Positions 10,747-63,607 of a stretch of DNA of 64,000 nt are shown here, one piece after another. Positions within the stretch are counted from its first letter, which is position 1, and each line of letters starts with the position of its first letter. Source of the DNA: a virus (lineage: Duplodnaviria > Caudoviricetes); IMG/VR virus record IMGVR_UViG_3300035182_001152, one strand, 5' to 3'. A program made the translations under genes and the position numbers. Under the pieces are notes generated by a model. That model saw only the letters and a list, made by a program, of their open reading frames with translations. It searched no databases and was not told the DNA's origin.

Positions 10747-10774
10747 GAGCCTCTTCGGAGGCTCTTTTCTTTTC
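10747..10774 (+). terminator. rho-independent terminator
   Basis: AGAGCCTC-TTCG-GAGGCTCT followed by TTTCTTTT. Confidence 0.85.
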
Positions 10775-10824
10775 TGGTTCCATAAATACAGCACGAAACT
10801 ACACGCTGTAGAGGAACAGAATCC

Positions 10825-24355: not shown

Positions 24356-24382
24356 TAAATGTTCTCCTTGATCGGATATTTA

Positions 24383-24610
24383 TCAGTCCATCCGACGCAC
24401 GGAAGTCGTCAACTGTTTGATGGCATTGTTAAGGGCTACAGGCTCTACAGAGGCTTTGCCGAGATCGTACGCACGAATTAGTTCTTCACGAACTTGCTCA
24501 AACACAAACGTGCCTTTTTGTCCTTGTTTCTCGATCCTCAGCATCTGGCAACCACTTAGCTTCAGGTAAGAAGCCAAGACGATGTCGGATGTTCTATATT
24601 CGGATTGCAT
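24383..24610 (-). CDS. small DUF5659-like protein
   Basis: TSDIVLASYLKLSG...KGTFVF pattern; start at ATG 24610 behind GAGG. Confidence 0.6.
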   Translation of the reverse strand: MQSEYRTSDIVLASYLKLSGCQMLRIEKQGQKGTFVFEQVREELIRAYDLGKASVEPVALNNAIKQLTTSVRRMD

Positions 24611-24635: not shown

Positions 24636-26651
24636 TTATGTGTTGACAGCCTCAATGCGGCTGAGTTTGAATTGTGTTGGATCTCCAGCTGGCACACCAA
24701 AATTGAAACCTGTGAACGTCAATGGCGGGTATGTCAATACTGCGGAGGTATATACAAGCACTCCGTTGATGTAACCCTTGATCTGGTTACCAGATACTAC
24801 TTCCAGGCGAACAGTAATCATGTTGTTGACAGCCACACCAGAGGATAGCGTGTGTGTTGTTCCGCCTGTTTCAGCACCGTCGTTGATCTGGACCATGATC
24901 TGATTGGTTGTCAGATTCGGATAGATGTCGACGTATGGGCCAAAGAAGTCGATTACATTTGTTTCTTTGGCGAAGAAGCGGAAGTACGGATCACCAGTAG
25001 CGGGAGCGGACTTGACGTACACGTCAACCTCTGTGTAGAAGTTGCCGTTGCTTGGGGCGGCCCAACTAGAGCGAGCCCAGATGTTCGTATCCGCTGTCGT
25101 AACAAAGCCGTCGCCTGTCAAAATCAGTTCACTCAGATCGTCAACCACCTGGAAGATGCTCCACGTGTGGCCACTATCAACGGTGTGGGTAGAAAGGTCG
25201 CCGGTTCCCGAGAAAGTGTCCAACAGATAGGCCTGTGCACCAGGGCCGAACACAAACTGAATCTGTTCATGAAAGAATGCAGCGGTGTACAAATCAGGAG
25301 CAGACGCTACTGCGCAGTATGCATCACCATACGAACCGGCATACACCATTGCACCGTCGGTTGACTGACCAACGGGCGTTGTTTGCTTGACGTTTTCCAA
25401 TGTTGTCAAGCGGAAGTTTGCACCCTCAGCTTGAATCGAATTTACTGTGTACGATCCGTCGTTAATACCAAGGTAAGAGCCTGTCACAATCACAGCATCA
25501 CCAGGGACAAATGGTTCCGTGCGGAACACTGCCAATTGACCAGTGCCCAGTGACGTAATGTCAACAATATCCGTGTAAGTTTGCGGATAGCGAGTGGCGG
25601 CCAAGTTAAACACACCAAACTTCGTCGATGGGTTGAAGTAATACGTGTCCACGCCATTGATGGGTGCAGGATATCCGCCTGCGTCTGTCAGCTTGATGGC
25701 TGCGCCGGCCGGCCAATATGGAACGTTATCCGCACTAAGGGGAACGTTTAAGCGCCCATTGCCTTGGACGAGCAGGGAGATTGGCTCAACCAACGTGACT
25801 GTAGACTGCGTTTGTGGGCCGTTTACTGTTACATTCGCGACAGTAAACTTACCATTTGCCGTCGTATCACCGTTACCGTTAACGTACACATAATCACCGG
25901 GTGCTACTGTAACAGTACCTGAGACCAGATTGCCGGTAACAACGATCTGCTTCATTGTGCCTGTCGCCGCAATGATCTGAAACGGTGTAGCCATTACCAA
26001 TTGATTCGTTGTTAAAGCATCAACAACGCAATCGATCGGCGTGCCAGGCGATTGGTTAACGAGGAATGAATTGACTTTCAAGCCGACAGGCTGAACACGC
26101 AGTTGGCCAGTACCCGCACTTGTAAAGCCAATTGGTGATCCACCTGACGTTGCAGATACGTAAATCACATTACCAATGACTGTGACAACATAGTATTGCA
26201 CGCCTGGTAGAATCGTCGTTGTTGCGGTTGGGAACGTTCCATCAGTGGTAAACGTCACCCTGTCACCAACCGTGAACGTGAAGCCGCTAGCGTCTGGTGT
26301 TAGTGTAATCTGAACGGCACCAGTACCAGCAACGGAAGCCAGTAAGTTGATCGGTCCTTGTGCGCTAACAATCGTTGCTTGAGGCAAATCACCACTGTCC
26401 GCCTCACTGTACGGATTCCAAACGAAGCCAAAACCGCACGAATACGTTACAGGAGCATCACCATTGGGACCCGTCATGCCAACGTCTAGGAACATTTTAT
26501 CCGTAACGCCTGCTTTCAGAGCTTCTGAGTACACATACTCAACAAAAACATCAAGCACCTTCGAGTGGTATGGTTTGACCTCTTGGATATACTCCAAGAG
26601 GCCTTCCGTTGGATCGACACGAAACAGTGCAGAAGAAAGTGTGTTAGCCAT
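24636..26651 (-). CDS. tail fibre / receptor-binding-type virion protein
   Basis: 671 aa; N-terminal LLEYIQEVKPYHSK anchor, repeated beta modules, C-terminal lectin-like beta-sandwich. Confidence 0.7.
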   Translation of the reverse strand: MANTLSSALFRVDPTEGLLEYIQEVKPYHSKVLDVFVEYVYSEALKAGVTDKMFLDVGMTGPNGDAPVTYSCGFGFVWNPYSEADSGDLPQATIVSAQGPINLLASVAGTGAVQITLTPDASGFTFTVGDRVTFTTDGTFPTATTTILPGVQYYVVTVIGNVIYVSATSGGSPIGFTSAGTGQLRVQPVGLKVNSFLVNQSPGTPIDCVVDALTTNQLVMATPFQIIAATGTMKQIVVTGNLVSGTVTVAPGDYVYVNGNGDTTANGKFTVANVTVNGPQTQSTVTLVEPISLLVQGNGRLNVPLSADNVPYWPAGAAIKLTDAGGYPAPINGVDTYYFNPSTKFGVFNLAATRYPQTYTDIVDITSLGTGQLAVFRTEPFVPGDAVIVTGSYLGINDGSYTVNSIQAEGANFRLTTLENVKQTTPVGQSTDGAMVYAGSYGDAYCAVASAPDLYTAAFFHEQIQFVFGPGAQAYLLDTFSGTGDLSTHTVDSGHTWSIFQVVDDLSELILTGDGFVTTADTNIWARSSWAAPSNGNFYTEVDVYVKSAPATGDPYFRFFAKETNVIDFFGPYVDIYPNLTTNQIMVQINDGAETGGTTHTLSSGVAVNNMITVRLEVVSGNQIKGYINGVLVYTSAVLTYPPLTFTGFNFGVPAGDPTQFKLSRIEAVNT

Positions 26652-27372
26652 TCAGGGTTTCCAATTCTTTAGTAAACGGTTCAACCATCGCCAATGGAAA
26701 ACATTCTGTCCACCCTGCAAACTGACGGGACGTAAGTCCAACAGTACGATATCGTTGCCCCTTATACTTATGAAGTAGTGCCTGTTCTAGTCGGTATGCT
26801 TCTCCAAGGGTTGTTGATACGGAAATGATAGTTTTGACCTTGCTTGTTCCAAATCGTTGACTGACTCTCTGTTTAGTTATGCCAATCTTGCAAAACCGAT
26901 CGTCAACGGTAACCAAATACAATAGTGCATGGTGATTCTGTTCATCTGGATTCTCTGTAAAATACGAATCTGAATACTTGCCACGCACGTACATAGAGCA
27001 TTTCATGCACCCAGCACCATTCAAGTGGTCAGCCGGCCGCTGTAGGAACGTTCCATGATCATAACACTTAATCGCGACCTTCTTATTCATACTGATGAGC
27101 GTTGTTGAGTCATAGCAGTATGTGGAGCCGTGTACTTGTCGAGCTCTAGCGATGAACTCTTGCGTGGTTACCTTACCCGTCCCACCGCATTTGGGACAGC
27201 CATACTTGTGCATATGGTCTTTAGGTGTCTGCATGAATGATCCATGACTAGGGCACGTAATCTCAACTTTTGTTGTTACGTTTACAAACTCTACTTTTTC
27301 ATATGTGTATTGACCGCCATGCTTTTGCATGGCACGGTCAATAAACGTCTGTTGTGATAATTTTGCTGGCAT
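26644..27372 (-). mobile_element. free-standing homing endonuclease with zinc-binding repeats (DUF723/Hef-like) and GIY-YIG-like nuclease domain
   Basis: Two ITCPSHGSF...GCPKC-type repeats; LYLV...KIGIT; FAGWTECF; AT-richer than flanks. Confidence 0.82.
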
Positions 27373-27409: not shown

Positions 27410-30400
27410 TCAGTCGTCGAAAAGACCCCCAACCTCAAGCACGCGAATACCGTGCAGGGCGATCCAGGACGTCTTCAGTAGTTCCTTGTATTTAGCGCGA
27501 GTGGATAGGGCGTCAGATAACGCTTCGAACCAAATTGCGTTGACGTGCAAGGCGTTGAACGTTGTGTAAATCGTATCCATCGCTACTGCAATATTCGCAG
27601 GAGTATCAAACGAATGTGTCGCGAAGAAAGCATCGATATCCGTTGGAGAGAAGTCATTCAGCGGATTGGTCAAGTACGCAAGTACTGTCGCAAGGCCAAG
27701 CTGTTTATCAACGAATGCTTGATCAATTCCAAGACCGAAGCGAGTGTCCGTGCCTAGTGCAGCATCGTACAGCTCGCGCTCAAGCGAAGGTACGCGGATA
27801 GACGAATCGGTTAGCTTGTAGCCGATTAGAGATTCAACCAAACGATCCCACAGAACACGAGCAATCGTGCTCGTTTGATCACGACGGAACATCAACCACT
27901 CCTGGTGCTTGTTCTTCAGATTCATCTGCTTGCCGTTGGCAGCAGGATCATCGCGAAGAGCCCAGTCGCGGGTGAAACGAACGAAGTAACGGTTGTCGTC
28001 GTTGATGTAGCTTGCAACCTTACGAATGATTGCTTCACGATACAGCACCGGCACTTGGTAGTCCGCCTCTGTCAGAATGCCGAGACTAAAGATTGATCCG
28101 TACTCAATCATGCCATAACCGTACTTCTCCATCAGGTATGGGTCGTCCTTAGGACGCTGAACGATGAAGTAAGGAGTTGGAATTGCAACCAGCTGCTGTG
28201 CTACCTCGAATGCTGATAGGCTGCTCGAATCCGTTACGTCACGTGTGGTCGACCCTTCTACCCAGAAGTAGTAGTTTGTCACTGTTGTGGCACCAGTATT
28301 AGCACCACCATACGTGAACGTCGTTGTTGAGTATTCGTAATCAGACTTCCACTGGATCATCTGCGTGCCGTCGTCAACCACGTCTGGGTTAAACGCAGCT
28401 TCAGCAGTCGTGATTGTGTGGACTGGACGGATAATGTCAATAATGTCGTACTCATTCAGCACAACCGGGTTAGCAGCTGTGACGTAGAACTGTGAACCAT
28501 CCTGCGTAATTGGCAGGCCGGTCTCAACGAGCACACCGTTGACATACACATCAACTGTGTCAGCACCAGTACCCGTCAGCACCCAAGCACTTGGATTGGA
28601 CGGTGTCCAAACGTAACGTTGCAGACCCGTTGCCGTCGACACATTATACGGCCACGTAATCGTAGCAGTGACACTTGCCGTTGCACGCAAAGAAGCAACC
28701 ATGAGAGGTGCTAGAACACGGTCGCGCAACATCGACTGGGAGACCCAATCAGTAGCAACGAAGCCTGGAACAACCATAACGCTGGCGCCGGCTGTGGTAA
28801 TTACCACAGGTTCCTCAGTCGATGGGTCCAGTAACGTGAACGTTGTTCCAGTATTAGCAACAACATACGGTACACCTGAGTCAATTCCAACAGGTAGGGT
28901 AGCTGCAGTGAACAACACACGATCACCTTGTGTGAACGATACTGACGTTGTGACTTCGTTAGTGGTGGTGTTAATCGTTGCAGCGTGTGACGTACGTACA
29001 CGCTTGAACACGTTCTTACGAGGTGTTCCGGTTGCTTTGTTGTTCTGAGCGATCAACGAGTTTGTCGATTGAGATGTAACCAGTGCGTCCCACTGGGATG
29101 GTGGCACTGAAGACTTGACCCACTCATACACCTTAACGTCAGCCCACGGTGCCAGCTTACCCCAGTTGTACAGGCGTGCGTTGACGTCTGGGAACACCTT
29201 GTCATCGTAGTATGGCAGATAGCCAAGTGCAGCCGTATCTAGCCACACCGTGCCGACTTCTTGTTGGTTCCAGAAGTTCAGCGATGCGTTTGTTGGGTTT
29301 GCAGTGAATTCGTAGCGAGCTGGGTCACCAGCGTGCTGCAGATCAACGTTGTGGATTGCAACGTGTGAATGACTGCCGCGTGCCGGATCCCAAATCGGAA
29401 TCTGCTGAACTACTGTATTCGCAACGTTGTCAATCAATTTAGCCGGGCTTAGCTTTGTCTTGGCGGGGTTTAATGCGAAGATTATCAGCACGTCTTGGAA
29501 GCCGAGCTTGTTGAAGCGAATGATCTCAGAGTCAACCTTCGTCACTTCCTTAACACCCGACCCAGCGTCATAGAACTCCGTCACGTAGTTACCGAAGTCT
29601 TCCGTCGTCACGAAGCCGAGCGGCGCGGTTGTTGAAGGTACAGACACAACAGTGATTGTTGTGTTTGTGCCATCGTACACGACAGCTGTTGGGTAGTACG
29701 AACCATTGTTCGAATCAGATTGTGTGATTGCAAAGGGGACACCCACTTGCACGTTGTTGGTTTCGTTGCCTGCAAGCACGATGGTTGTACTTGTAGCGCT
29801 GACGATCGGCGTATCCGTCTTCGCTAGAATGCGGTGCAACACGCGGACATCGTCACAAGGCTGATCCAACTTGAAATACACACAGTCAGTCGCAGCCAAG
29901 CCGTCAACTAGCACCGGTTGAACCGTAACTCGCGCTGATTGATCAACCGTCCACAGCCCCGTAGTTGAATTATAACCAAACAACTGGTTCGTTGTTGGGT
30001 TGAACCAGAACGTAATCGTCCTTTCAGCGCCAGGAGGGGGTGGGTTTACACCAGAGTGAATCAGCGTCATTGAAGAGACGCTTGCATCCAGGAACAGTGG
30101 TGAACCAATTTCCGCCTTTTGCTCTGGGAAGTTGTTCCAACGTGTTCCGTCGTTCCACGAAACAGGCTGGAAGCCCTTGTTGACGGCAGCAACAACGTCG
30201 TCATCCGTTGGTAGTTCAGACGTAGCCAAGAACTCCAGACGGACGTCGTCCAGCGCACCGTCCGTTGAAAACATGTTGATCTCTGGATACACACGTGGGC
30301 GGGAGTCGCCATATTCAGCAATCTTGTACGCCCAGAATTCATCCATCTGCGCGTCGATGAAGCGACGAGAGTTGATGTATGCCTTGACGCTGTTGACGGA

Positions 30401-33400
30401 GCCCTTTGTTTGAATCATGCCACGGTAGAACAAAAACTGTGACTTGCTGTTAATGTTCAAGAAGTCAAGGAAGGACGACTTGCCCGTGTATCCTAGTAGG
30501 GCGCGGGACCGGCGTGCGAACTCTGATGTTTCAGACAGCTCCATCGTATCGTAGAAGTTGCGGATATCTCCCGTGGAACCTTCAATGTTACGATTGAATT
30601 GTTGATCGAGCAGGTAGTATCCACCCAACGTTGGACGAAGGGTGTAGTCAGCCTTCTCAAAGTAATCAACGTCGAACTTCTGCGACTGCAACCCGAGGAA
30701 CGGATCGTAAATCAGTGAGCCATCAACGGTGTAATCATTGAAGATCAAGAAGTGTTCGTAGCCTTCCACGAACAAGTGAGCGCCACCAACGTGGATGTAG
30801 TTGTATGGATCATCCACGTAGATCGGATCTACGTCATTCGTAATCGCAGGACGGATAGCAATTTGGCTCCGCTTGTCTTGACGGTACACAGTAATTTTAT
30901 CGGCGTTCAACGGACGGGCATATTGGTCATAGATCGTCTGTTGGATGCGAATATCACTGTATGGACCTTCAATCACATTCGACAGCACGCCAAGCGGTGT
31001 GTCAATCCAAGCACCGTTCCGCTGTGGGTTCATTTCAAAACGTGGGTATGCGCGATTCTTGTTGTACAGACCGACCATCACCTGACCGGATCCCGCAGTC
31101 GACAGCGTAACAAACGACGATGAGTCGTTTGGATTGGCACTAATTGACAAGCGGAACACACCCGTTGACACATTGACAATGTAGTATGGAGTGTTGCCGA
31201 TCAGTGGTGCAGGTAAGTCGCCTGACGACGACACAGTCACAACCGTACCGCTCAACCACTGAGGAACAGCGGCGCCGAACGTCAACAGGCTGGTCGTTGG
31301 GTTAGCTGTGACGGGGAACGTGTCGGAGATTGTGATTCGCGATTGACGCAGACCATACGCCCAGTTAATGAACCGCTCCGTCTCAACTGACCAGTCAGCG
31401 ATGCGGCCGGTTTCAGGATCGAAGTCGCGAGCATCCGCAACACCTTGGAGAATTCCCTGGTCAGCCTGGTACGCAGCATAGCCATCAAACAAGTTGATCA
31501 GCGATTGCATACCCAACACCGTGTATGGTGGTGAGAATTTCTGAACGTCTGTCCGATCGACAACGTAGTGGAACCACAGATCCTGTGTATTGCCATTGCC
31601 ACCGTACACATAGAACGACGTATCAACCTGAGAGATCGTCAAGTTGCCTTCACCCGCAGACGTTAGATCGATTGCATTACCGAGGATTGCGTCGTTTGGT
31701 GTTGCGGCGAGCTTGAACGTGTTACCTGTGATGCGGATCACGTAGTATGGCGTGTTGGGCAGTAGTGGTGCTGGTAGGAACTTCGCGGAACCAATCACCA
31801 CCATATCGCCTGTTTGCCAAGGCAGAGACTTAGCAACGTTAACAGTACCATCGGCAGCAGACGTAGCAATCGCCTGCTGCACGTTAATGCGGGTTCGGTT
31901 CGTCGTAGTTTCAAACACGGACGATGTCACGGTATACGTGCCGTTGTTGGTCGATGAACCAACAACGGTCAATGTTGAACCTGCTGTGAACGTTGACGTG
32001 TAGTCGCCACTGATACCGAACTGACGAGCTGCAGCGTTAGCAACAACGATTGGGTAGCGGAATGCTGTGCCAACGTCAGTCGTTGGATCTGCTGTAAATT
32101 GGTACGAACGAATGCCGTAATACGAAATTTCGCGCGCAACTGCGGCGAGTGAATCAACCTCCATCTTCCACTGTGCTTGGTTGTTGTACTGCACCAGCGG
32201 AGGTGGAATGTTCAGTAGGGTGACTTCGAAGCCATCCAGCCACATATCACGAATCACGCCGTTGTTAGCCAGTGTGATTTGGTAATCTTGGTTGATCACG
32301 TCGAAGTACTTGTTTGCGATCTCAAACGTGCTTGTATCGACAATGCCACCAAATTGGTAGGTCAGACGCGGGCTCCAACCAGCCCACATCTCGCGGAACT
32401 GGGTATTGGTGTCAAAACCGCTGAAACGGTTGAAGTTAACGTACCATTGGTTAATACCACGGACAAGGTATACCTTGTCCGTGTCATACACGTCACCGTG
32501 GAACAGCGTATCAACGTGGCTGTACACTTGCTTAAACGTTGTCTCTACCTGCAATCCATCAACAACCGTGTAGCGTGGGCCAAAAGCGGCGTGCAAGAAC
32601 CGTGCTGGCTGCATCAGGAATGCAATTACAGGCTGATCATATGGGTGCTGCCCCGATACTGTCCACGACCACTCCACCGGACCAACATCGCCAAATGCAT
32701 AGTCAGCGTCAGGAGCGACGATTTCAACACCGTAGTTGTTGAAAATCGAGCGGACTGTAGGATTTGCCAACGCAAGTGATGCATTGTCGTAGTATGGTGG
32801 TAGTAGGGCATCTGGGGCGTAGCCGCCTGGGATACCACCATCAGAGATGTTGACGGAGAAGTAAGCATAGTGTGGCAGGGCTTGTCCATCGGTCACTGGG
32901 TTACCTGTGCTGATAGCACCGTTGGGATACGTGCGGCCAGCAGGTACAATGCCAAGACGGACGTTCTGCCACATACCCGTCGTCGTTGAGTGAACGTACT
33001 TCCACTTACGTGCACCAGTGGTGTCAAGGTACTCATCATCCCACCACGTTGGCTTATCGTGGTAGCCCTGCAGCTTCCACGGCTCCAGGTTAGGATATGG
33101 TGTGCCGTACCAACGTGTGTACACTTCTTGCCAAGAAGAGGCAAAAGCTGGAGTGATGTCATTACGAGGACCGAGCACAGGCGTGCTTGCAGCGTAATTC
33201 CACGTGAATGCGTTTGTAGCCGTGTAGGCTGTATTCACGTACGGTGAAGACTGTTCTGATGCAGCAAGGAACGCCGTAAAGCGTGAGCGGCTGAGATTGT
33301 TGTAGGTGGTTTGCTCACTCTGCGTTGGCGTTAGCGTGCTGTAATCAAACACGGATGCCGATACAGGCGTGACTTCGTACAGACGCGTTTCAACCTCCAG

Positions 33401-36400
33401 CTGCACTGCACCCAACAGTTCCGCAAAATTGACAGTTGTCCACAGAGGGCTAATGTCACCAGAACCCGGCGTAGTCACAGCAACCCACGTGAAGCTCGAC
33501 TTCTTGTAGGTTGCTTGTGTTGTGAAATTGTAGTACATCGTACCGTCAGCAATTTCAGCTCCCGAAGCATCGTAGAACGAAGGCGCGACGCCGTTGATCG
33601 CATATGGGCTGAATCGCTGTAGCTTGCGTACACCACCACTGACACGGTACCAGTACACGCCTGTGCGCAGGCTGCCAAATGCTGCAATGGCATTCGCTGT
33701 TGTTGGTGCTGCGGCTGTGCTAACTACACCAAACTTGCCATTGCTAACGCGCGAATCAGTGATACCACAGATGATTCGCGACAGTTTGTCAGCTTCGGCA
33801 GCGCTGTAGTAGATCTGGGAACGGTGACCATCGTGGTGGAACAGACGAACGTCGCCGTTGTCGTTTGTCAAGTGTGGGCGATACAGTGTAGCTAGGCCTA
33901 ACATCGGAGCTGTAGCGATCCAATTTTGGATGCCCTTGCCCGTAGTTGGATCGTATGCCACAGTATCTCCATACGTCTGAGCTTCAAAATCATTGGTTTC
34001 GTACTCAGAGATCACCGATTCGCTCAAGAATGCGCCAAAGTCTAGTAAGGACTCAGGAGTATACGTTGCGAACGTTGTCGTGATCGTCTTGTTGAAGATG
34101 TCACGAATTGACAACAGACCGGAAGCGTATTCACGAGCGGCGAATTCTATTACGCCCACTGGGGTGACATTCGTCACGTTAACGGCTGAGATCAGCGTAT
34201 CAAAGCCGTCGTTGTGTTCCTTAATTGTACCACCAACGCCGTAACCGACGTCGTTTTGTGTCAGAGTATATGCTCCACCACCCAGCAAGCCAGGGATTGC
34301 TGTTTGACCTGATAGGATCGAACGGAAGTGTGTCAGGATCTGTGAGAACTTAACAATCTGCTTATTTTCGTGCTCTGGGTTGTACTGCCATTGATCCAAC
34401 ACTTCCCAATCACCAAGCTCGCTACCAACCGTAACGGGGTTGCGTGATGCATCAACGTATGAAGGAACGTATTGTTGATTCGTAAGACCGTGCTTCCACA
34501 CCGTTTGTAGAGTTGGGTCCGTGTCGTTGATTACCAGATCAGACACGGGCACCCATGCACTTGCGTTGCGTTGATACAACACATTGTTCGTCGTGTCCAT
34601 CCAGAATGAATGTTCAACATTCAATAGGGATGCAGGTGGCAATGCTGAGATAACAGGACGGCGGAACGCAATGCCAGCACCAACCGTTACAGGGATGTTC
34701 TGTGTCCAAGCCTTACCGTCCCAGTACTGTACGGTGTTCAGCAGAGGGCTATACCAGAAGCTCTGTGGAGTAAACGTGTTACGGTAGCCGTAAATCACAT
34801 TGTCGTCCCGATCCAGGAGGTACTGCTGAAATTCGTATTCCTTACCATCCGTAGAGGCAACGATGCGGCGGCCAACGGCTGGGTTGACAGACGAAGAAGA
34901 CGATTCATTAAAAGCAAACAAAGGATTAGCAGCGATCACATCTGACGTGACGACATCGTACACGTTGAATTGTGGGTATTGGTTGATCAACGTCTTTGTT
35001 TGCTCTAACTTGTGATATTTTGTCAGCGACAGGTACGCAGGTTGTGTACCTGCAACCGTAGCTAACGTGAATGCCGTCTCATCTTCAATAGTACGAACAG
35101 GAATGGCGTACATACCTGCATCAGCCTGTGCGGCAGGGCCAACTTCGAGGCGTACGATGTCGAATTGTGCCAGAGGCGTCTGGAACACGATTGACTGAAC
35201 GTATGGAATTGTTTGTGTCGTCTGTCGTGTTGTACCAACCACAGTATATGAAGGGACACCCACACCAACAATTTCGGTGTAGTTCGCGTATTGGCGAATG
35301 CCGTTTACGTACACGCGTAGTTCGTTGCTGCCAGGAGTTGCGTACAGCTGCGACGTTGCCAGGTTGTAACGGAATTGATCAACAAGATCAATCTGTGTTA
35401 CGCCGGTAATGTCGATATTCTGTTCTTGGAAGGCATTACCAATTTGGATCGAGGTTGTTTGTGGAACAAACGTCAATCCGTTGTCAGCATGAACTGGCAG
35501 GGAGCTAACAGCAACCAGAGGAGGGGGGTTGACCAAATCTTGTGTGAGGAAGTAATTCCAGCTACAGTTTCGTGACGGTACGCCAACCGTGGACGTTTGA
35601 TCCAGTACCCAGTGAACGTGGTAACCACGCCAGATGTCTCCTGCAGCCGTCAGCAAAGGTTCAATGCGAGCATACTCTAGGCCGCCACCTGAAGGTGTTG
35701 ACGTGAATGTTGATTCTGCGAGCGCAACTACCGTACACAGGTAGCCGAGACCGACGGCGGTTTGCACTAGCGACGGATCGCTAATCGTAACTTGACGATA
35801 TTCAGACGCAGCGACGGTGTAAACTGCTGAAGCAAGGGTGTCGTCGGTGAAACGGAACTTGAAGCCAGGAACAAACGTTTGCGAGTAGTCGGTGTCACGG
35901 TTGACGGTTGCCGTTTGTTGGAAGAGGTACAACGTCCAGACACCACCAATGTTGGTGACGTAGTAGCCCTTAATTGGCTCTAGTTCAAATCGTGATGGCA
36001 CAACCGTCGCTGAGGCGAACGCTGCATCAACGGTTGAGCGATACTTCCACGCATACGTGAAACTTGTCCACTCGTTTTGTTCAATCGTGCTGTTGTACTC
36101 AATGATTGGGACTTGAGCACGCTTGACGTCGGAAAAGGACTGAACTTGTGATTTGTGAATCCAGGCGTTTTGAGAAGACCACTGATTCAACACCTGCGGT
36201 GTGCAACCTGCAGATGTGTCCCATTCAATCCCCTCACCAGCATCCCATTGACCAATGTCCCAACCGTACGTTCCGTTGCAGACGCAGTTTGCTTCCGCTT
36301 GGTATTCGTTCAGCTGTTGGGTTAGGTCGATGTTTACAGCAATCGCTTGGACGGTTGCAACCCACGCGGTGCCTGACCACGATTTGAGGATTGAAGCTGT

Positions 36401-37192
36401 AGTATCGTACCACCACTGGCCAAGGAACGGTACGGCTGGTGGTGTAGATCCTGCTGACGCGATCGATTCAACGACGGCGACGGTCGTCTTGTTTGTGGTA
36501 GAATCGTACGTAGAACTTGCCACAACCCAGCGCTTGTTGGCAACGTTGACGTCAACGTTGCCATCTGTGTAGAACGCAAATCCAGCAATGAACAGGTCAT
36601 CCTGCTTCGACGAGATCACGAACGTGTCTGTCGCATAGCCAATTGCTTGCACGGGGAAAGTGCCGCCACGCAGGGCGATCATGTTTGCGTATGATTGAGC
36701 CTTGCTTTGAGCCTTATTGCAACGATTTTCAATCGTGAAGTACTGGGCGGGATCGCGGGCATTTTCTGGCTTCCAGAAGTAATCCTGGTAGTTAATCAGC
36801 ATGTCCATGTTCACTGGAGGTGCCCAGTTGAACTGAAGAGTATTGGCCCACAAAGGCAAACGATTGATGTCAACACCCATCAGCGCTAGCTGCTCTTGGA
36901 ATGCCTTATAGGACAGAGCATTCTCAACAGTACCAACCGTTGAGAACATCGTTGGTGCTAGTTGAAACGCTTGACGGTGGGGGGTTGATTCCTTGATCTG
37001 ACGATCAACGAGGGCTTGTGGATTGCCTTGACCGATGAAGCCCGCAACACGTGCAGTGTCGTCCTTCGTCAGGTGACGATTGAACGCAACATCAAACATG
37101 CTCTTGTTGACTTCAGAGCGGTATACCTCTGGGAGGTAGTTGTTGATGTTATTGAAGGGGATCGTGTGATCTGAGTTTGTTGCCACGGGCAT
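27410..37192 (-). CDS. giant baseplate wedge protein (gp7-like position)
   Basis: Uninterrupted 3260-aa ORF downstream of gp6; N-terminal YLPEVYR; repeated beta modules. Confidence 0.8.
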   Translation of the reverse strand: MPVATNSDHTIPFNNINNYLPEVYRSEVNKSMFDVAFNRHLTKDDTARVAGFIGQGNPQALVDRQIKESTPHRQAFQLAPTMFSTVGTVENALSYKAFQEQLALMGVDINRLPLWANTLQFNWAPPVNMDMLINYQDYFWKPENARDPAQYFTIENRCNKAQSKAQSYANMIALRGGTFPVQAIGYATDTFVISSKQDDLFIAGFAFYTDGNVDVNVANKRWVVASSTYDSTTNKTTVAVVESIASAGSTPPAVPFLGQWWYDTTASILKSWSGTAWVATVQAIAVNIDLTQQLNEYQAEANCVCNGTYGWDIGQWDAGEGIEWDTSAGCTPQVLNQWSSQNAWIHKSQVQSFSDVKRAQVPIIEYNSTIEQNEWTSFTYAWKYRSTVDAAFASATVVPSRFELEPIKGYYVTNIGGVWTLYLFQQTATVNRDTDYSQTFVPGFKFRFTDDTLASAVYTVAASEYRQVTISDPSLVQTAVGLGYLCTVVALAESTFTSTPSGGGLEYARIEPLLTAAGDIWRGYHVHWVLDQTSTVGVPSRNCSWNYFLTQDLVNPPPLVAVSSLPVHADNGLTFVPQTTSIQIGNAFQEQNIDITGVTQIDLVDQFRYNLATSQLYATPGSNELRVYVNGIRQYANYTEIVGVGVPSYTVVGTTRQTTQTIPYVQSIVFQTPLAQFDIVRLEVGPAAQADAGMYAIPVRTIEDETAFTLATVAGTQPAYLSLTKYHKLEQTKTLINQYPQFNVYDVVTSDVIAANPLFAFNESSSSSVNPAVGRRIVASTDGKEYEFQQYLLDRDDNVIYGYRNTFTPQSFWYSPLLNTVQYWDGKAWTQNIPVTVGAGIAFRRPVISALPPASLLNVEHSFWMDTTNNVLYQRNASAWVPVSDLVINDTDPTLQTVWKHGLTNQQYVPSYVDASRNPVTVGSELGDWEVLDQWQYNPEHENKQIVKFSQILTHFRSILSGQTAIPGLLGGGAYTLTQNDVGYGVGGTIKEHNDGFDTLISAVNVTNVTPVGVIEFAAREYASGLLSIRDIFNKTITTTFATYTPESLLDFGAFLSESVISEYETNDFEAQTYGDTVAYDPTTGKGIQNWIATAPMLGLATLYRPHLTNDNGDVRLFHHDGHRSQIYYSAAEADKLSRIICGITDSRVSNGKFGVVSTAAAPTTANAIAAFGSLRTGVYWYRVSGGVRKLQRFSPYAINGVAPSFYDASGAEIADGTMYYNFTTQATYKKSSFTWVAVTTPGSGDISPLWTTVNFAELLGAVQLEVETRLYEVTPVSASVFDYSTLTPTQSEQTTYNNLSRSRFTAFLAASEQSSPYVNTAYTATNAFTWNYAASTPVLGPRNDITPAFASSWQEVYTRWYGTPYPNLEPWKLQGYHDKPTWWDDEYLDTTGARKWKYVHSTTTGMWQNVRLGIVPAGRTYPNGAISTGNPVTDGQALPHYAYFSVNISDGGIPGGYAPDALLPPYYDNASLALANPTVRSIFNNYGVEIVAPDADYAFGDVGPVEWSWTVSGQHPYDQPVIAFLMQPARFLHAAFGPRYTVVDGLQVETTFKQVYSHVDTLFHGDVYDTDKVYLVRGINQWYVNFNRFSGFDTNTQFREMWAGWSPRLTYQFGGIVDTSTFEIANKYFDVINQDYQITLANNGVIRDMWLDGFEVTLLNIPPPLVQYNNQAQWKMEVDSLAAVAREISYYGIRSYQFTADPTTDVGTAFRYPIVVANAAARQFGISGDYTSTFTAGSTLTVVGSSTNNGTYTVTSSVFETTTNRTRINVQQAIATSAADGTVNVAKSLPWQTGDMVVIGSAKFLPAPLLPNTPYYVIRITGNTFKLAATPNDAILGNAIDLTSAGEGNLTISQVDTSFYVYGGNGNTQDLWFHYVVDRTDVQKFSPPYTVLGMQSLINLFDGYAAYQADQGILQGVADARDFDPETGRIADWSVETERFINWAYGLRQSRITISDTFPVTANPTTSLLTFGAAVPQWLSGTVVTVSSSGDLPAPLIGNTPYYIVNVSTGVFRLSISANPNDSSSFVTLSTAGSGQVMVGLYNKNRAYPRFEMNPQRNGAWIDTPLGVLSNVIEGPYSDIRIQQTIYDQYARPLNADKITVYRQDKRSQIAIRPAITNDVDPIYVDDPYNYIHVGGAHLFVEGYEHFLIFNDYTVDGSLIYDPFLGLQSQKFDVDYFEKADYTLRPTLGGYYLLDQQFNRNIEGSTGDIRNFYDTMELSETSEFARRSRALLGYTGKSSFLDFLNINSKSQFLFYRGMIQTKGSVNSVKAYINSRRFIDAQMDEFWAYKIAEYGDSRPRVYPEINMFSTDGALDDVRLEFLATSELPTDDDVVAAVNKGFQPVSWNDGTRWNNFPEQKAEIGSPLFLDASVSSMTLIHSGVNPPPPGAERTITFWFNPTTNQLFGYNSTTGLWTVDQSARVTVQPVLVDGLAATDCVYFKLDQPCDDVRVLHRILAKTDTPIVSATSTTIVLAGNETNNVQVGVPFAITQSDSNNGSYYPTAVVYDGTNTTITVVSVPSTTAPLGFVTTEDFGNYVTEFYDAGSGVKEVTKVDSEIIRFNKLGFQDVLIIFALNPAKTKLSPAKLIDNVANTVVQQIPIWDPARGSHSHVAIHNVDLQHAGDPARYEFTANPTNASLNFWNQQEVGTVWLDTAALGYLPYYDDKVFPDVNARLYNWGKLAPWADVKVYEWVKSSVPPSQWDALVTSQSTNSLIAQNNKATGTPRKNVFKRVRTSHAATINTTTNEVTTSVSFTQGDRVLFTAATLPVGIDSGVPYVVANTGTTFTLLDPSTEEPVVITTAGASVMVVPGFVATDWVSQSMLRDRVLAPLMVASLRATASVTATITWPYNVSTATGLQRYVWTPSNPSAWVLTGTGADTVDVYVNGVLVETGLPITQDGSQFYVTAANPVVLNEYDIIDIIRPVHTITTAEAAFNPDVVDDGTQMIQWKSDYEYSTTTFTYGGANTGATTVTNYYFWVEGSTTRDVTDSSSLSAFEVAQQLVAIPTPYFIVQRPKDDPYLMEKYGYGMIEYGSIFSLGILTEADYQVPVLYREAIIRKVASYINDDNRYFVRFTRDWALRDDPAANGKQMNLKNKHQEWLMFRRDQTSTIARVLWDRLVESLIGYKLTDSSIRVPSLERELYDAALGTDTRFGLGIDQAFVDKQLGLATVLAYLTNPLNDFSPTDIDAFFATHSFDTPANIAVAMDTIYTTFNALHVNAIWFEALSDALSTRAKYKELLKTSWIALHGIRVLEVGGLFDD

Positions 37193-37206
37193 ACCTCTTG
37201 TTATAC

Positions 37207-37698
37207 TTATACAGCCAGATATTGGATTGCGTTCGCTAGTGTAGTGGTGCTGTCTACAGCAAACCCGAGCATTTTGTTACAGCGCGTACATAATAACCCT
37301 CGAACTCTACCAGACGTGTGACAGTGATCAACTGTGAGAGAAGTGCGTGTTCGTCCTCCTACTGTCAATCCAACCAAGCAAATTTTGCACAATCCTTTCT
37401 GTACGTTAAGCATCGCTTCAATTTGCTCTGGTGATAACCCATACTTACGTTGCAGCGTGCTACGTTTGATCTTATCCAAGTTTTTGCGAGCATACTGACG
37501 ACGGCTCTCACGTCCTGTTGGGGTGTTGGATCCACCTGGATTGCTGTCTTGGTGCAACTTCACATAGAGGCGGTTGCAGCATACACATGCCGCAGACGAC
37601 GTTAACCGTTCACATAGGTGTCCATGTTTACATGGCTTACCCGTCCAGTAATATGTGTGTCCACCCACACGAGCATTGTGACGTGACATAATTATCAT
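37207..37698 (-). mobile_element. free-standing endonuclease VII-family (His-Me finger) homing endonuclease
   Basis: QKGLCKIC...VDHCHTSGRVRGLLCTRCNKMLG...AIQYL; start uncertain (37707, 37698 or 37689). Confidence 0.85.
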
Positions 37699-37719
37699 GT
37701 GATCCATGATAATTATTTA
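37688..37719 (-). promoter_or_regulatory. late promoter overlapping a 12-bp AUG-sequestering hairpin
   Basis: ATAATTATCATG (37688-37699) / CATGATAATTAT (37705-37716); TATTTA at 37714-37719. Confidence 0.8.
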
Positions 37720-37751
37720 TGAAGAGGTATGCTCGGTTTAACCCGGGTTGT

Positions 37752-40700
37752 TTACGCGTTCAGACGAAGGTTCGTTGGCGTGTACCCGGTAACGATCTGG
37801 ATGTTGTCAACGGTGATATCTGGATACAACACCTCATCTTCGCGCGCTTGCACTTGGAACAGGTCACCAAACTGATCTTGCGCTAGCGTTGGGACCAACA
37901 CAACAGAGCTGATTTCTGACGGCAGTGCGGCGTGAATAGCGGCTGCTAGTTCCGTGAAGTAGAACGTTTCACCAAACTCCCACAGTATAATGTTGAAGAA
38001 ATTGCGAATTGTAGTGACGATCGTTGTTTTGATTTGGTTGTCCGTTAGGTTACGATCTGACGAACGGACAACCAAGAACGAAGCCTGCAACGCAGCAGAT
38101 GCCTTTGAACCAAACAGCAGCTTAATCTTGCCAGGGTGCAAAACGATCGTATCTGAGATCATCTTGTTGTCCAGCAGATAGTTGTACGACGTGCGTAGAT
38201 CTAGCGGCGTTGGCAGCGTTGGCTGTGTTGCCAGAGGATCCTCAAGCCAGCGCTTCAGTGCCATGTAGTAACCCTTTGTAATCACGAACGAGTCGATGAT
38301 GTTTGAAGGTGACGGATCAACTAGATGGTAACGCGGTGAGCGGTGGAACCAAGCAAAGTTCAAATCTGAACGACCCTCCCAACGCTGCCACAATCCCGTG
38401 CCGTTGATGACGTCAGTTGCATATGACGTGATCGACGTTGCTGTCGTGGGTGCTGGCGTCCACGGATCAACTGTAGTTGATCGCGTGAAGTACACGTAAT
38501 CTTTGATGCGAATTGTGATCTGTGATCCTACTGGAGCTGTGCCGTAGATTGAATTGTACAGGATCACTTGGTTTGACGCGTATGAGCCAGACGATGCTGA
38601 CACACCCCACATTACACCTTCACCAGCAAGCGGAGTGCCGTTGTATTCAATCGTCACATCAGGGGTGGTGTCAGGCGCAGCAGGATCGATGTAGTAATAC
38701 ACTGGTAGCGTGATTGCCATACCCCCAAACAGCGGAATTCCTGTTGGCACTGTGTAGTTATACTTTGGCATCATGATGTCTGCCACACCACGGTGGTTGA
38801 CGATGTCGTCAATGATTAGGTCATCTGGTACACCATCGTTGTTGGAGTCTTGGGACATCACTGACAAGCGATTAACGTCTGGGAGACCTGAATCAGGACC
38901 GGAATCGACTGTCTCCTGACCAAGCACGTTGTACACCCAGTTTTGAGATAGGATGCCCGTGCGGTTGTAGTTGACGTTTGCCTGCAAAATCACAACGCTG
39001 TCAACGTCGGATTGCAATGTATCGTACTCAATCACAGATGAAGCCTGGTTCGTATTCCAGAAAGACGTAGTTTGACTCTGGAATACCAAGCGGCGCGCAG
39101 TACGCGTGACATTGTAGCGCGTTTCAAAGATTGACGCCTGTATTACAGAGAACAGAGGTGTAGTGATGTAGTTTGCAGGCCAACCTGGCAGTGTTGTTGG
39201 GGAGTCAGAACGCTTAACGGCGTACCATTCATACGTTGTCAGGTTGTAGTACATGTCCATCTGTGTTGGCACAGGTGGAGGAGTCAGTGCGTTCGTAATG
39301 CGAACGATTTCATCGGTGTTGAACACACGACGGAATGACTGCAACGGTACGCCGGCGCTGACAATCTGGACAAAGATGTCTGTTGACGATAGCAGTGGCT
39401 CAATGTAAGTGCTAATTAACACACTAATGTCCACTACTGGCGTCGTCCCAGTTTCGGGGGTATCTTCAAAATACAGCAGCCCGTCGTCACCGTAAATCTT
39501 GACGTTCTCGTATGTGCCTGAGGCATCATGCCAAGGAATGTACTTTGAATCACCGGCAAACGTGCGGTTGATTGAGCGCAGCTTCAAGATCGAAGGATCC
39601 TGCAGCATGAACACGTTATAGTCTTGACCGTTAACCATACGGTCTTGTGAATAGTACACGGCGGGAGCAGTTACACGAACGTGCTCGATATCTTCAGCTG
39701 ATGAGCCGTTCTGCAACGAGCTGATCAAGCTGAATGTGAATGTGAACGTCTGTGTACGGCCAAATGTATCAACGTACGTGAACGATGCGGGAGTGTTGAC
39801 GACTGATGCTTGCGGCACAACAATGTCAGCATTCAGCGATGTACGAACCCAGATGTCAAACGTACCAAGAGGGATGTCAGCAAATTCACCGTCACCGAAG
39901 ATCAGGCGAACGGTGTTGTTGTCACGCGTTTCTATTTCGTACTTGTTGCGCTTGGGGTTGGTGTTGAAGATAACGTTCTGTGCGTGTGCCAGGTCAACCT
40001 GAACCCACTCGCCAGACTTACCGTCTGTCGTTGGCGTTAGGTATGGCAGAACCGTCTTAACGTCTGTTGTCTCGCCCGTGACGGGATCAACATTGTTGAC
40101 CCACACGTCCGTGTCGTTGACATTCTGTGCGGAGACGTTGTACGTTTGGTTCGGGGTAATACCATCAAACGTTGTACGGAAACGCTGCAAAGTACCTTGT
40201 TTGGTATAGCAAAAGAAGCCTGTTGTGTCGGATGAGTCACCCAGGCCGTCTTGACCGTACAGGAGCGTAAAGTTGGCGTTGTTGTACGGACGACGCTCGA
40301 CAATACCCTGATCTGCGTCGTATGCGACGGGGACCAACTCCATTGGTGCTGACCGACCGTTGACAGCAGCGGTGTACGAGAATACGCCCGTTGCCAGCGG
40401 TGACAGGTTCCACGAATACATTTCGAACAGCACGTCTTGAATTTGGAATCGGTCCGTTGGACCAACAGAGCCAAATTGTTGCTCTAGGACGCGGTTCATC
40501 ACGAGAATGAACTGATCTTTCCAGCTAGAGTTGCCAAGATCGTTCCAACGAATCGTCTTGTTTGCAAGATCGTTGCCGTTTGCATCGACTACAGATTCAG
40601 TTGTCGATACGGACATTAGTTTAACCAGGCCACGAGCTGGCAGAGAGCGGGCAGCTGTGTAGGAAACCAACTTAGCTAAGCGGAGAATCGAGTCTTTACG

Positions 40701-40961
40701 CTGCGCCGCCGAGATGAAGTTCTCGTGTGCGTTGATATCCATCCGATAAGACAGTACTTCAGCGATGTACGCGAACACTTCAACGATTGCGATGAATTCA
40801 CTGGATTCAATGAAGTCGTTGAAAGTCTCCGGGAAGTACAGCTTAATGTAGTCGAGGATACTCTGTTTGACCGTGTTGTAGTCAAATGCTGCGAAGTTGA
40901 TGTTTTGGAAGCTGTCGTACACCCTCTCCCACGACTCAGCGCGAGATACTAATCTTGACAT
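37752..40961 (-). CDS. baseplate wedge subunit (T4 gp6-like, extended)
   Basis: FAAFDYNTVKQ, FNDFIESSE, ENFISAAQRKDSILRLAKLVSY, LIFGDGEFA, QDRMVNGQDY. Confidence 0.9.
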   Translation of the reverse strand: MSRLVSRAESWERVYDSFQNINFAAFDYNTVKQSILDYIKLYFPETFNDFIESSEFIAIVEVFAYIAEVLSYRMDINAHENFISAAQRKDSILRLAKLVSYTAARSLPARGLVKLMSVSTTESVVDANGNDLANKTIRWNDLGNSSWKDQFILVMNRVLEQQFGSVGPTDRFQIQDVLFEMYSWNLSPLATGVFSYTAAVNGRSAPMELVPVAYDADQGIVERRPYNNANFTLLYGQDGLGDSSDTTGFFCYTKQGTLQRFRTTFDGITPNQTYNVSAQNVNDTDVWVNNVDPVTGETTDVKTVLPYLTPTTDGKSGEWVQVDLAHAQNVIFNTNPKRNKYEIETRDNNTVRLIFGDGEFADIPLGTFDIWVRTSLNADIVVPQASVVNTPASFTYVDTFGRTQTFTFTFSLISSLQNGSSAEDIEHVRVTAPAVYYSQDRMVNGQDYNVFMLQDPSILKLRSINRTFAGDSKYIPWHDASGTYENVKIYGDDGLLYFEDTPETGTTPVVDISVLISTYIEPLLSSTDIFVQIVSAGVPLQSFRRVFNTDEIVRITNALTPPPVPTQMDMYYNLTTYEWYAVKRSDSPTTLPGWPANYITTPLFSVIQASIFETRYNVTRTARRLVFQSQTTSFWNTNQASSVIEYDTLQSDVDSVVILQANVNYNRTGILSQNWVYNVLGQETVDSGPDSGLPDVNRLSVMSQDSNNDGVPDDLIIDDIVNHRGVADIMMPKYNYTVPTGIPLFGGMAITLPVYYYIDPAAPDTTPDVTIEYNGTPLAGEGVMWGVSASSGSYASNQVILYNSIYGTAPVGSQITIRIKDYVYFTRSTTVDPWTPAPTTATSITSYATDVINGTGLWQRWEGRSDLNFAWFHRSPRYHLVDPSPSNIIDSFVITKGYYMALKRWLEDPLATQPTLPTPLDLRTSYNYLLDNKMISDTIVLHPGKIKLLFGSKASAALQASFLVVRSSDRNLTDNQIKTTIVTTIRNFFNIILWEFGETFYFTELAAAIHAALPSEISSVVLVPTLAQDQFGDLFQVQAREDEVLYPDITVDNIQIVTGYTPTNLRLNA

Positions 40962-41268
40962 GATGTGATCCTTTATGAAATGGTTTTACATAACTTAGGG
41001 TATATGTAAAACACTCTGTGTGTCCGTTAAATTGGATAGACGGACTGTGCCGACGCGCCGCTGTTGCTGTTCCACACTCGGGGCATCCGGCAGCTTTTTT
41101 AGATGCATGCACAGATGGGAGTTGGTCAAAGAGTCCTTGTTCGTTGCAAATAATTGTAACAGGATTGTGCACACCCGTATAGTGGGCAAGAGAGTAGTCG
41201 TACTTATCACCATGCCATTTTTTAGCATTGATGATGAACGATTCCGCCCCCGCTGTTAACCCTGACAT
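40936..41268 (-). pseudogene. internally deleted DUF723/Hef-like homing endonuclease remnant
   Basis: One HGDKYDYS...IC...GCPECG repeat joined directly to FNGHTECF; the nuclease core present in the 26644 paralog is missing. Confidence 0.72.
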
Positions 41269-41339
41269 GCTGTATTCCTTGATGTTTCGTACGTACGCGC
41301 GCATTCCCACGATTCAGCACGGGAAATTAGTCGACTCAT
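41256..41339 (-). pseudogene. orphaned duplicate of the gp6 N-terminus
   Basis: MSRLISRAESWE versus gp6 MSRLVSRAESWE; TAATG-coupled to the gp25 stop; terminates after 27 codons. Confidence 0.85.
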
Positions 41340-46611: not shown

Positions 46612-47364
46612 TTAGAAGTTGACCAAATTACCGGTCTTGTATTTCATCAGGTCAAACTGCTCGTACTCACTAGGGGAGTGTGTCTCAATCAATGAGATCG
46701 TGATGTCCATTTTACGGGGGAATGGTTCCGAGCTTGCTGTTGGACTGCCGGTTGTGTCGTATACAGGAATGTAATCAACATCCTCTGGATATGTAATCCC
46801 AAGATTGGTCATTACTACGGGCACACGATTGATGTTCACTCGAGGGCCAGTCCCACGCAAATCATTCGAAGAAGATGAGTACGCATATAAGTACAGTACA
46901 TCTGGTGGTGCACCCCGAAGTTGGACGCCTTGCTCAACGATTCGCTTTTTGGCTGCTGCATCACGGTTATCATGCGATTGCGGTGCGGTATCGTTGATCG
47001 TTGGATTAGAGCGGTTCGCCTGATTCGTTGCTGTTAAAGTGTTCGTACTTCCAAAGTAAGGGAGTAGCCAACTGCGCAACTTTTGAAGGTTCGTCATGTT
47101 CCGCACAGCGTCAGCGACATTACGAGAGATCAAATGCGCCGTGATTTCAAACGAACGCGAGTTTGTGTGCTTGTATACCTGAATCGCGCCCGGAAGGTGA
47201 ACTGGGGTGATTGCGGAGTATTCAGCTGATCGTGTTTCTGAGAATGATGGCGTCACATCGAATGCCACCTGCGCTTCCCGAATAGACGATGGATCACCAC
47301 CGTACGTCAGGCTTGCAATCGGCACCAGACGTACTTTGTAGTTGTTCTCTTTGATATCGGACAT
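46612..47364 (-). CDS. tail-tube initiator / baseplate protein (gp48/gp54-like)
   Basis: GAPPDVLYLYAY...VPVVMTNLGITYPEDVDY; TATTTA at 47392-47397. Confidence 0.65.
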   Translation of the reverse strand: MSDIKENNYKVRLVPIASLTYGGDPSSIREAQVAFDVTPSFSETRSAEYSAITPVHLPGAIQVYKHTNSRSFEITAHLISRNVADAVRNMTNLQKLRSWLLPYFGSTNTLTATNQANRSNPTINDTAPQSHDNRDAAAKKRIVEQGVQLRGAPPDVLYLYAYSSSSNDLRGTGPRVNINRVPVVMTNLGITYPEDVDYIPVYDTTGSPTASSEPFPRKMDITISLIETHSPSEYEQFDLMKYKTGNLVNF

Positions 47365-47402
47365 TCGGGTTACTCCAAGGCTCAGACTTCGTATTTATTG
47401 GC

Positions 47403-47431
47403 GTTGACCTTTGGAAAAATTCGGCTATACT
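47403..47431 (+). promoter_or_regulatory. sigma70-type promoter GTTGAC-N17-TATACT
   Basis: Same layout as 6345-6373, upstream of the gp55-like gene. Confidence 0.7.
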
Positions 47432-58759: not shown

Positions 58760-58845
58760 ATCCGCGCGATTTCCGAACGCGTACCAATAAATAAATCAGC
58801 GGCTTCGTGACGGAGCCTACAACAACTTCCACATAGGGGTCAAGT

Positions 58846-63536: not shown

Positions 63537-63607
63537 CTTTTTACCATCTGAACCAATTCCACGATAAATATCTAGCGCAAAACTCGTGCGAAAAGGTGAC
63601 GCAACAT

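Follow-up and report, generated by a model that had tools for sequence, protein, structure and literature searches.

A probable T4-type translation-control hairpin with an Endo VII-type endonuclease gene inserted in its loop in an uncultured jumbo phage

Studies have shown that some genes of phage T4, for example e, soc, 49, 25 and 26, are controlled by a hairpin that sequesters the ribosome-binding site and has a late promoter inside it (PMC3014915, PMC2988022). The Shine-Dalgarno sequence of these genes is in the 3' strand of the stem, and the late transcripts that start from the TATAAATA-type promoter lack the 5' strand (PMC3014915, PMC2988022). Endonuclease genes regulated by hairpins have also been documented, including those of I-TevI, I-TevII, I-TevIII, segB and Aeh1 mobE (PMC2988022). 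In this study, we analysed a stretch of 64,000 nt (IMG/VR record IMGVR_UViG_3300035182_001152, hereafter the window) from a phage of the Caudoviricetes, in which the junction between a gp6-like baseplate wedge gene and a giant virion structural protein gene carries an inverted repeat and an Endo VII-type endonuclease gene. We believe, with good confidence, that the two arms of this repeat are the halves of a conserved T4-type translation-control hairpin and that the endonuclease gene was inserted into its loop. As in T4, the Shine-Dalgarno sequence would belong to the 3' strand, the promoter would exclude the 5' strand from late transcripts, and the controlled gene belongs to the late or structural class and to a polycistronic message. 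Unlike in T4, the device lies at the gp6-like/giant gene junction of an uncultured jumbo-phage clade that is known from sequence and is distantly related to Xanthomonas phage XacN1, and in the window the stem is interrupted by a gene of about 505 nt.

The genes at the junction are all on the minus strand, in the order gp6-like gene (40961..37752), endonuclease open reading frame (ORF; 37707..37207) and giant ORF (37192..27410). The segments GCATACCTCTT (37189-37199) and AAGAGGTATGC (37722-37732) are exact reverse complements over 11 bases, and 13 of 14 bases match when the repeat is extended to 37186-37199 and 37722-37735, with 522 nt between the arms. These coordinates agree with a preliminary description of the locus, which had also reported, correctly, that the arms flank an Endo VII-type gene and that the upstream arm lies just 5' of a TAAATA promoter: the minus-strand ORF 37707..37207 matches PF02945 (E 4e-21), both arms are outside it, and the upstream arm, in the mRNA sense, ends one base before CATAAATA (37721-37714). 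The Shine-Dalgarno sequence AAGAGG (37199-37194) is part of the downstream arm. The preliminary description had taken this arm for the ribosome-binding site and AUG of the giant gene; the AAGAGG part stands, and the AUG part does not, GTG 37186 being the likelier start. The complement in the window thus spans AAGAGG through the first base of GTG across the 522-nt distance. The elements of the module are as follows.

37722..37735, minus strand: 5' arm (anti-Shine-Dalgarno) of the probable ancestral hairpin, mRNA CGAGCAUACCUCUU; homologous to the 5' arms of the relatives' loci L004, L030 and L009.
37714..37721, minus strand: CATAAATA, T4-type late-promoter-like box; present at this junction in all relatives.
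37208..37712, minus strand: inserted segment, approximate extent, with boundaries good to a few bases only; no counterpart in endonuclease-less relatives.
37186..37199, minus strand: 3' arm, with the Shine-Dalgarno sequence AAGAGG (37199-37194), a spacer and the initial G of the GTG start; the 3' arms of L004, L030 and L009 are its homologues.

Under a blind search the repeat by itself was unremarkable: 23 distinct inverted repeats in the window are exact over at least 11 nt with a gap of at most 600 nt, and Markov simulations gave about 10 pairs. In a targeted test, the 22 nt 5' of the promoter were paired with the translation start region of the giant gene, and random 22-mers of the window paired with the window's translation start regions served as background. 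The targeted duplex reached -20.0 kcal/mol, and the background had a mean of -7.0, a standard deviation of 2.9 and a 1st percentile of -15.2 kcal/mol.

Relatives were collected by scans of metagenomes and IMG/VR, which gave about 60 further loci beyond the cultured phages. A near-identity DNA search of the phage collection returned nothing, and a distant search returned only a 130-nt match in Stenotrophomonas phages. The cultured phages XacN1, Xoo-sp13 and RAS14/CM1 are distant (30-55% protein identity), and in them no endonuclease separates the gp6-like gene from the adjacent giant gene, the box reads CTAAATA and the start codon is GTG. The gap between the two genes is 55-90 nt in most of the approximately 60 loci. 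When endonuclease-less relatives were compared for a contiguous hairpin, as the preliminary description had proposed, it was found at the same junction in over ten uncultured jumbo phages (L004, L030, L033, L036 and others), and in a closer clade the whole spacer between the two genes is one such hairpin (L004, L030, L033, L034, L036, L038, L010, L011, L037, L043, L075, L021 and L009 are included). Its pyrimidine-rich 5' arm abuts or overlaps xATAAATA, and its 3' arm is the Shine-Dalgarno sequence, sometimes together with the GTG. One example is L037, with a perfect 19-bp stem of -35.5 kcal/mol (z -8.2) whose 3' arm covers both the Shine-Dalgarno sequence and the GTG; the stem of L030 has 12 bp (z -4.4), and the z values of L011 and L010 were -5.7 and -3.5, respectively. 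At the endonuclease-less sites both arms are adjacent and lie within the promoter and Shine-Dalgarno region. The spacer of another relative, L008:1102-1251 (77% identical), is 150 nt long; a 35-codon ORF within it begins 5 nt downstream of TAAATA, and its terminal ATGA overlaps the start of the giant gene. No anti-Shine-Dalgarno arm is evident there.

In the alignment of the left junction, the window and its relatives are homologous from the 3' end of gp6 to CATAAATA(A/T)T, the 5' arm included, and at the right junction homology resumes a few to about 10 nt 5' of the Shine-Dalgarno sequence. The stretch without a counterpart is essentially the endonuclease ORF, which begins right after the promoter box and whose stop codon is 8 nt before the Shine-Dalgarno sequence of the giant gene. 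TAAATA is invariant between the arms, both in the relatives' module and in the left-junction alignments. The endonuclease is absent from the junction in L004, L030, L033 and about 25 others, so that its presence between two conserved genes is sporadic, and among the loci of the approximately 60 relatives no module other than that of the window was found to be split in the loop. The preliminary description had offered two readings of the repeat, (a) an ancestral local hairpin with the endonuclease inserted into the loop, and (b) a long-range pairing of roughly 520 nt that represses the giant gene on read-through transcripts. Reading (a) is supported, because endonuclease-less relatives carry the local hairpin and the arms of the window align with theirs, with homology lost at the ORF. 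The two readings are not exclusive: (a) would describe the origin and (b) the present-day function.

The arm sequences differ between lineages and match their own partners. Cognate 5' and 3' arms formed duplexes of -10.7 kcal/mol on average versus -7.7 kcal/mol for non-cognate arms (permutation p <= 2e-4), and the separated arms of the window ranked 1st of 33 modules in duplex energy. With 15 modules aligned by plain MAFFT, RNAalifold found no consensus structure because the arms are out of register, and the plain alignment was replaced by this cognate/non-cognate energy test and by a covariance-model alignment. In the latter, 83% of cells pair, versus 67.5% in shuffles and 38-50% in slid-partner controls, and 14 of 19 pairs change on both sides; these counts are inflated, as the alignment is model-fitted and contains, in four of its rows, reverse-strand reads of the same palindromic hairpins; moreover, the sequences are interrelated. 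Relative to L030 and L004, matched changes are seen on the two strands of the window's arms, namely C-G to U-A, and one C lost together with one G lost. The energy test and the covariance-model alignment point to maintenance of the stem by selection.

The box between the arms behaves like a T4-type late promoter box, because ATAAATA is enriched in the window (15 copies vs 3.2 expected) and is placed upstream of ORF starts: for nearly all copies, an ORF on the matching strand starts 19-37 nt further downstream, gp25 and other structural genes being among these ORFs. We also considered TATAAGTA (about 37204-37211) as a second promoter for the giant gene and did not adopt it, since all 15 copies in the window read ATAAATA. 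One plus-strand copy, at 58787-58793, has no ORF of at least 100 aa starting within 40 nt downstream, and the next 60 nt fold as two small hairpins. At the ATAAATA promoters at 24383, 63564, 47398 and 10782, the 5' flank can pair with the downstream Shine-Dalgarno region. The cognate duplexes there (24355-24409, 63538-63598, 47364-47424 and 10756-10830, respectively) have energies of -10 to -14 kcal/mol, none of them near -20 kcal/mol, and the hairpin device may be present at several genes of the phage.

From the T4 model, the ancestral spacer RNA would fold with a 5' strand just upstream of, and partly overlapping, ATAAATA, and with a 3' strand formed by the Shine-Dalgarno sequence of the giant gene, sometimes with its GTG. 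Read-through transcripts from the upstream gp6-like gene would carry both strands, and the ribosome site would be hidden; transcripts from the late promoter would lack the 5' strand, and the giant gene could be translated. The endonuclease gene would then have entered between the promoter box and the Shine-Dalgarno sequence, that is, in the hairpin loop, and would now use the resident late promoter, with the giant gene as the second cistron. What is observed is that the arms are homologous to those of relatives, that the relatives' hairpin is contiguous and co-varies, that a gene has been inserted, and that the promoter motif is enriched and lies upstream of ORF starts.

Several points weigh against this explanation, the inflation of the covariation counts among them. 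The closest relative, L004 (78% gp6 identity), has a weak, mismatched stem with a z of about -1 to -1.9. The hairpin is specific to one clade by the present comparison, since the more distant XacN1 and L015-L019 keep the promoter and lack the anti-Shine-Dalgarno arm. The late start site, the read-through from gp6 and the translational repression are carried over from T4 by analogy. The benefit of silencing read-through is unclear, because the gp6-like gene itself seems to be behind a late promoter (41747).

The inserted gene was then characterized, and its features are given below.

37207..37707, minus strand: free-standing Endo VII-type (His-Me finger) endonuclease ORF, 166 aa; PF02945 Endonuclease_7, E 4e-21 (residues 84-164); phrog_2633.
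37688..37716, minus strand: perfect 12-bp hairpin with a 5-nt loop, overlapping the 3' end of the promoter box; fold -12.8 kcal/mol, z -4.1.

The nuclease domain, the sporadic presence and the empty sites in relatives assign the ORF to the free-standing homing endonuclease type, for which homing is a prediction. Judged from its sequence, the gene is acquired, and probably recently, because it lacks close relatives (43% identity to the next-best homologue) and its codon usage is foreign: its GC content at third codon positions (GC3) was 0.43, that of the neighbours 0.56 +/- 0.04, and its log-likelihood for synonymous codons was about 4.6 standard deviations below theirs. No second lineage carrying the insertion came up in a protein search with the endonuclease. 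The insertion is present in four public contigs, which are identical over their overlap, so only one sequence variant is represented. No variant of the phage itself that lacks the endonuclease was seen in contigs from four DNA runs, and a search of the sequencing runs for the stretch returned no RNA run. All four metagenome runs with the phage also hold a contig with an L004-type empty junction past the gp6 stop (window 37749-37793); the mat and sediment samples that contain this phage thus also contain phages that lack the endonuclease.

The 12-bp hairpin covers all three candidate ATGs of the endonuclease (37707, 37698 and 37689), and a transcript starting at about 37708 is predicted to be unable to form it. 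Because the 5' strand of this hairpin overlaps the same promoter, late transcripts would open this hairpin too. No clear Shine-Dalgarno sequence precedes the candidate ATGs. The likely start is ATG 37689 (160 aa), and the public gene call is also of 160 aa. The first ATG of the inserted ORF is 5-6 nt after TAAATA both in the window (37707) and in L014:4197, about the T4-type late start position. The mRNA of the inserted ORF may be leaderless, or translation may begin further downstream, in the window at ATG 37689.

The arrangement of I-TevI, segB and mobE is that of the 12-bp hairpin over the endonuclease start in the window (PMC2988022). As with the hairpin-regulated endonucleases of T-even phages, the start of a mobile ORF is in a stable hairpin that overlaps a late promoter, a promoter of the host genome is harnessed and an existing operon is joined (PMC2988022). 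In contrast to them, the nuclease in the window is of the Endo VII type (PF02945) and not GIY-YIG or classic HNH; its ORF has no clear Shine-Dalgarno sequence and lies inside the regulatory hairpin of another gene, and its homing and cleavage are putative.

Other origins and functions of the two arms were weighed against the split hairpin. A chance meeting of an ordinary Shine-Dalgarno sequence with a pyrimidine stretch, with no shared history, would be in keeping with how common 11-base inverted repeats within 600 nt are in the window (23 against about 10 expected) and with the several other partial partners of the upstream arm. However, both arms align with the contiguous, co-varying hairpin arms of the relatives, and the targeted duplex lies beyond the 1st percentile of its background; we rejected pure chance, which the comparative data contradict and which we consider very improbable. 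We give even less credence to the arms being terminal inverted repeats carried by a mobile element of the endonuclease. They do flank the inserted gene in inverted orientation, but at the empty sites both arms are adjacent within the promoter and Shine-Dalgarno region of the host phage, and terminal repeats are not known from Endo VII and HNH cassettes. This reading was rejected as the arms belong to the host spacer and not to the insert.

The hairpin could also act mainly at another level, as a stabiliser or processing site of the gp6 RNA 3' end or as a protein operator over the late promoter, with the masking of the ribosome site incidental. We regard this as improbable, if less so than chance or terminal repeats. 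The 12-bp palindrome at 37688-37716 is perfect at the DNA level and could be an operator like that of I-TevI, which represses its own synthesis at an operator overlapping its late promoter (PMC2988022), and in the distant loci L073, L076 and L023 the stems flank the promoter without reaching the Shine-Dalgarno sequence. On the other hand, the 3' arm in the close clade consistently covers the Shine-Dalgarno sequence, in L037 also the GTG, and no U-run follows the stems, which are thus not intrinsic terminators.

A separate question is whether the split arms still form a long-range anti-Shine-Dalgarno helix over 522 nt, which would add a present-day function to the split hairpin and would not replace it. 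In read-through RNA, ribosomes would be kept off the endonuclease ORF by the inner 12-bp hairpin and off the giant gene by the outer helix, which would hide its ribosome site, and the single late promoter would remove both 5' strands. Control of the replicase by long-distance RNA pairing has been demonstrated in the RNA coliphages MS2 and Qbeta, where it is conserved as a long-range contact. Here too, complementary segments hundreds of nt apart could hide a ribosome site; unlike in these phages, the distance is secondary, resulting from the insertion, and the function of the pairing is a prediction.

We hold such a persisting helix to be possible but rather doubtful. In its favour, the 11 bp are perfect, the arm regions pair with -20 kcal/mol, among the strongest of the 33 modules, and both arms lie outside the endonuclease ORF. 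In partition-function folds of three read-through contexts, the pair probability was about 0.99 and the Shine-Dalgarno sequence was unpaired with a probability of 0.04-0.05. Seven bases of the 5' arm remain unpaired in the local fold and offer a possible nucleation site, and the matched two-strand changes relative to L030 and L004 also fit. However, the probability fell to 0.017 in a 1001-nt context, and the Shine-Dalgarno sequence of the promoter-initiated RNA is also mostly paired in silico (0.18 unpaired), so the predicted contrast between the transcripts is modest. A competing structure exists as well: the first six bases of the 5' arm (GAGCAU, 37729-37734) pair locally with AUGCUC (37671-37676) within the endonuclease ORF, enclosing the 12-bp hairpin, with a fold of -22.3 kcal/mol (z -5.1). 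The unameliorated codon usage of the endonuclease suggests a recent insertion, and the perfect arms may be simply inherited; the insertion is carried by a single sequence variant (the four identical public contigs), which gives no variation in the split state, and the matched arm changes are not datable relative to the insertion. That selection after the insertion kept a nested two-gene switch seems to us unlikely, if only slightly more so than the helix itself. In that model, one late promoter would lie within two concentric structures, an outer helix of 11-13 bp over the site of the giant gene (522 nt) and the inner 12-bp hairpin at the start of the endonuclease gene; both genes would be silent on read-through transcripts and expressed from promoter-initiated ones.

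The genes on both sides of the insertion are as follows.

37752..40961, minus strand: gp6-like baseplate wedge gene, 1069 aa; phrog_10646 baseplate wedge subunit, E 7e-267.
27410..37186, minus strand: giant virion structural protein gene, 3258 aa from GTG 37186 (3260 aa from ATG 37192); PHROG match, public gene calls.

The preliminary description had spoken of a 3260-aa baseplate gene. ATG 37192 is only 1 nt after the Shine-Dalgarno sequence and GTG 37186 is 7 nt after it. GTG 37186 is the likely start of the giant gene, and not ATG 37192, because of this 7-nt spacing (7-9 nt in other genes of the window), because the closest relatives start the gene at GTG GCx without an upstream ATG, and because public gene calls give a protein of 3258 aa from GTG 37186. 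A possible baseplate role of the protein is suggested by its position beside baseplate genes and by a PHROG match to 'virion structural protein'.

The gp6-like/giant junction is a recurrent insertion site. In L009 (70% identical), a GIY-YIG/NUMOD3 (seg-like) endonuclease gene of 221 aa follows the hairpin module (L009:4246-4967); it has captured the hairpin, the Shine-Dalgarno sequence and the GTG-GCT start of the giant gene, which now starts at an ATG overlapping the endonuclease stop. Inserts upstream of an intact module were found in L014 (a DUF7487 protein), L037 and L041 (a fibre-like gene), L049 (a TnpB fragment) and L071. Two small ORFs with DUF723 and treble-clef zinc-finger matches (40936-41310 and 26644-27372) adjoin the baseplate genes of the window, one between gp25 and the gp6-like gene and the other just downstream of the giant gene behind another ATAAATA. 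The baseplate region appears heavily colonised by endonuclease-like genes.

The coding region of the gp6-like gene itself contains a perfect 13-bp inverted repeat with a 16-nt spacer at 38034-38075. A plus-strand ORF, 37729..37875 (48 aa), begins at the upstream arm; because it runs antisense to the gp6-like gene over the conserved 3' end of that gene, and has no support, it was dropped.

The T4 device itself is known. What is new is its conservation, with covariation, in a jumbo-phage clade, the copy interrupted by an endonuclease gene that would borrow the same promoter, and the resulting nested geometry. The practical value is modest: the start of the giant gene is corrected, and the promoter and hairpin can be annotated in this phage group. 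For the biology of these phages, the locus would mean that the T4 device, a late promoter inside a hairpin masking the ribosome site, is conserved in uncultured jumbo phages far from T4. It would also illustrate how, in nature, a phage operon can accommodate a selfish endonuclease gene through the loop of a regulatory hairpin: the endonuclease probably took the resident late promoter, and the control element of the host remained intact in sequence, stretched over 522 nt. If the split helix is inactive, it would be a dated fossil that marks a recent insertion. If it works, it would offer a ready-made system for how far apart the strands of a repressor helix can be moved, and, should the nested switch be true, a mobile endonuclease would have integrated in a way that preserved the control of the host gene and copied the same control for itself.

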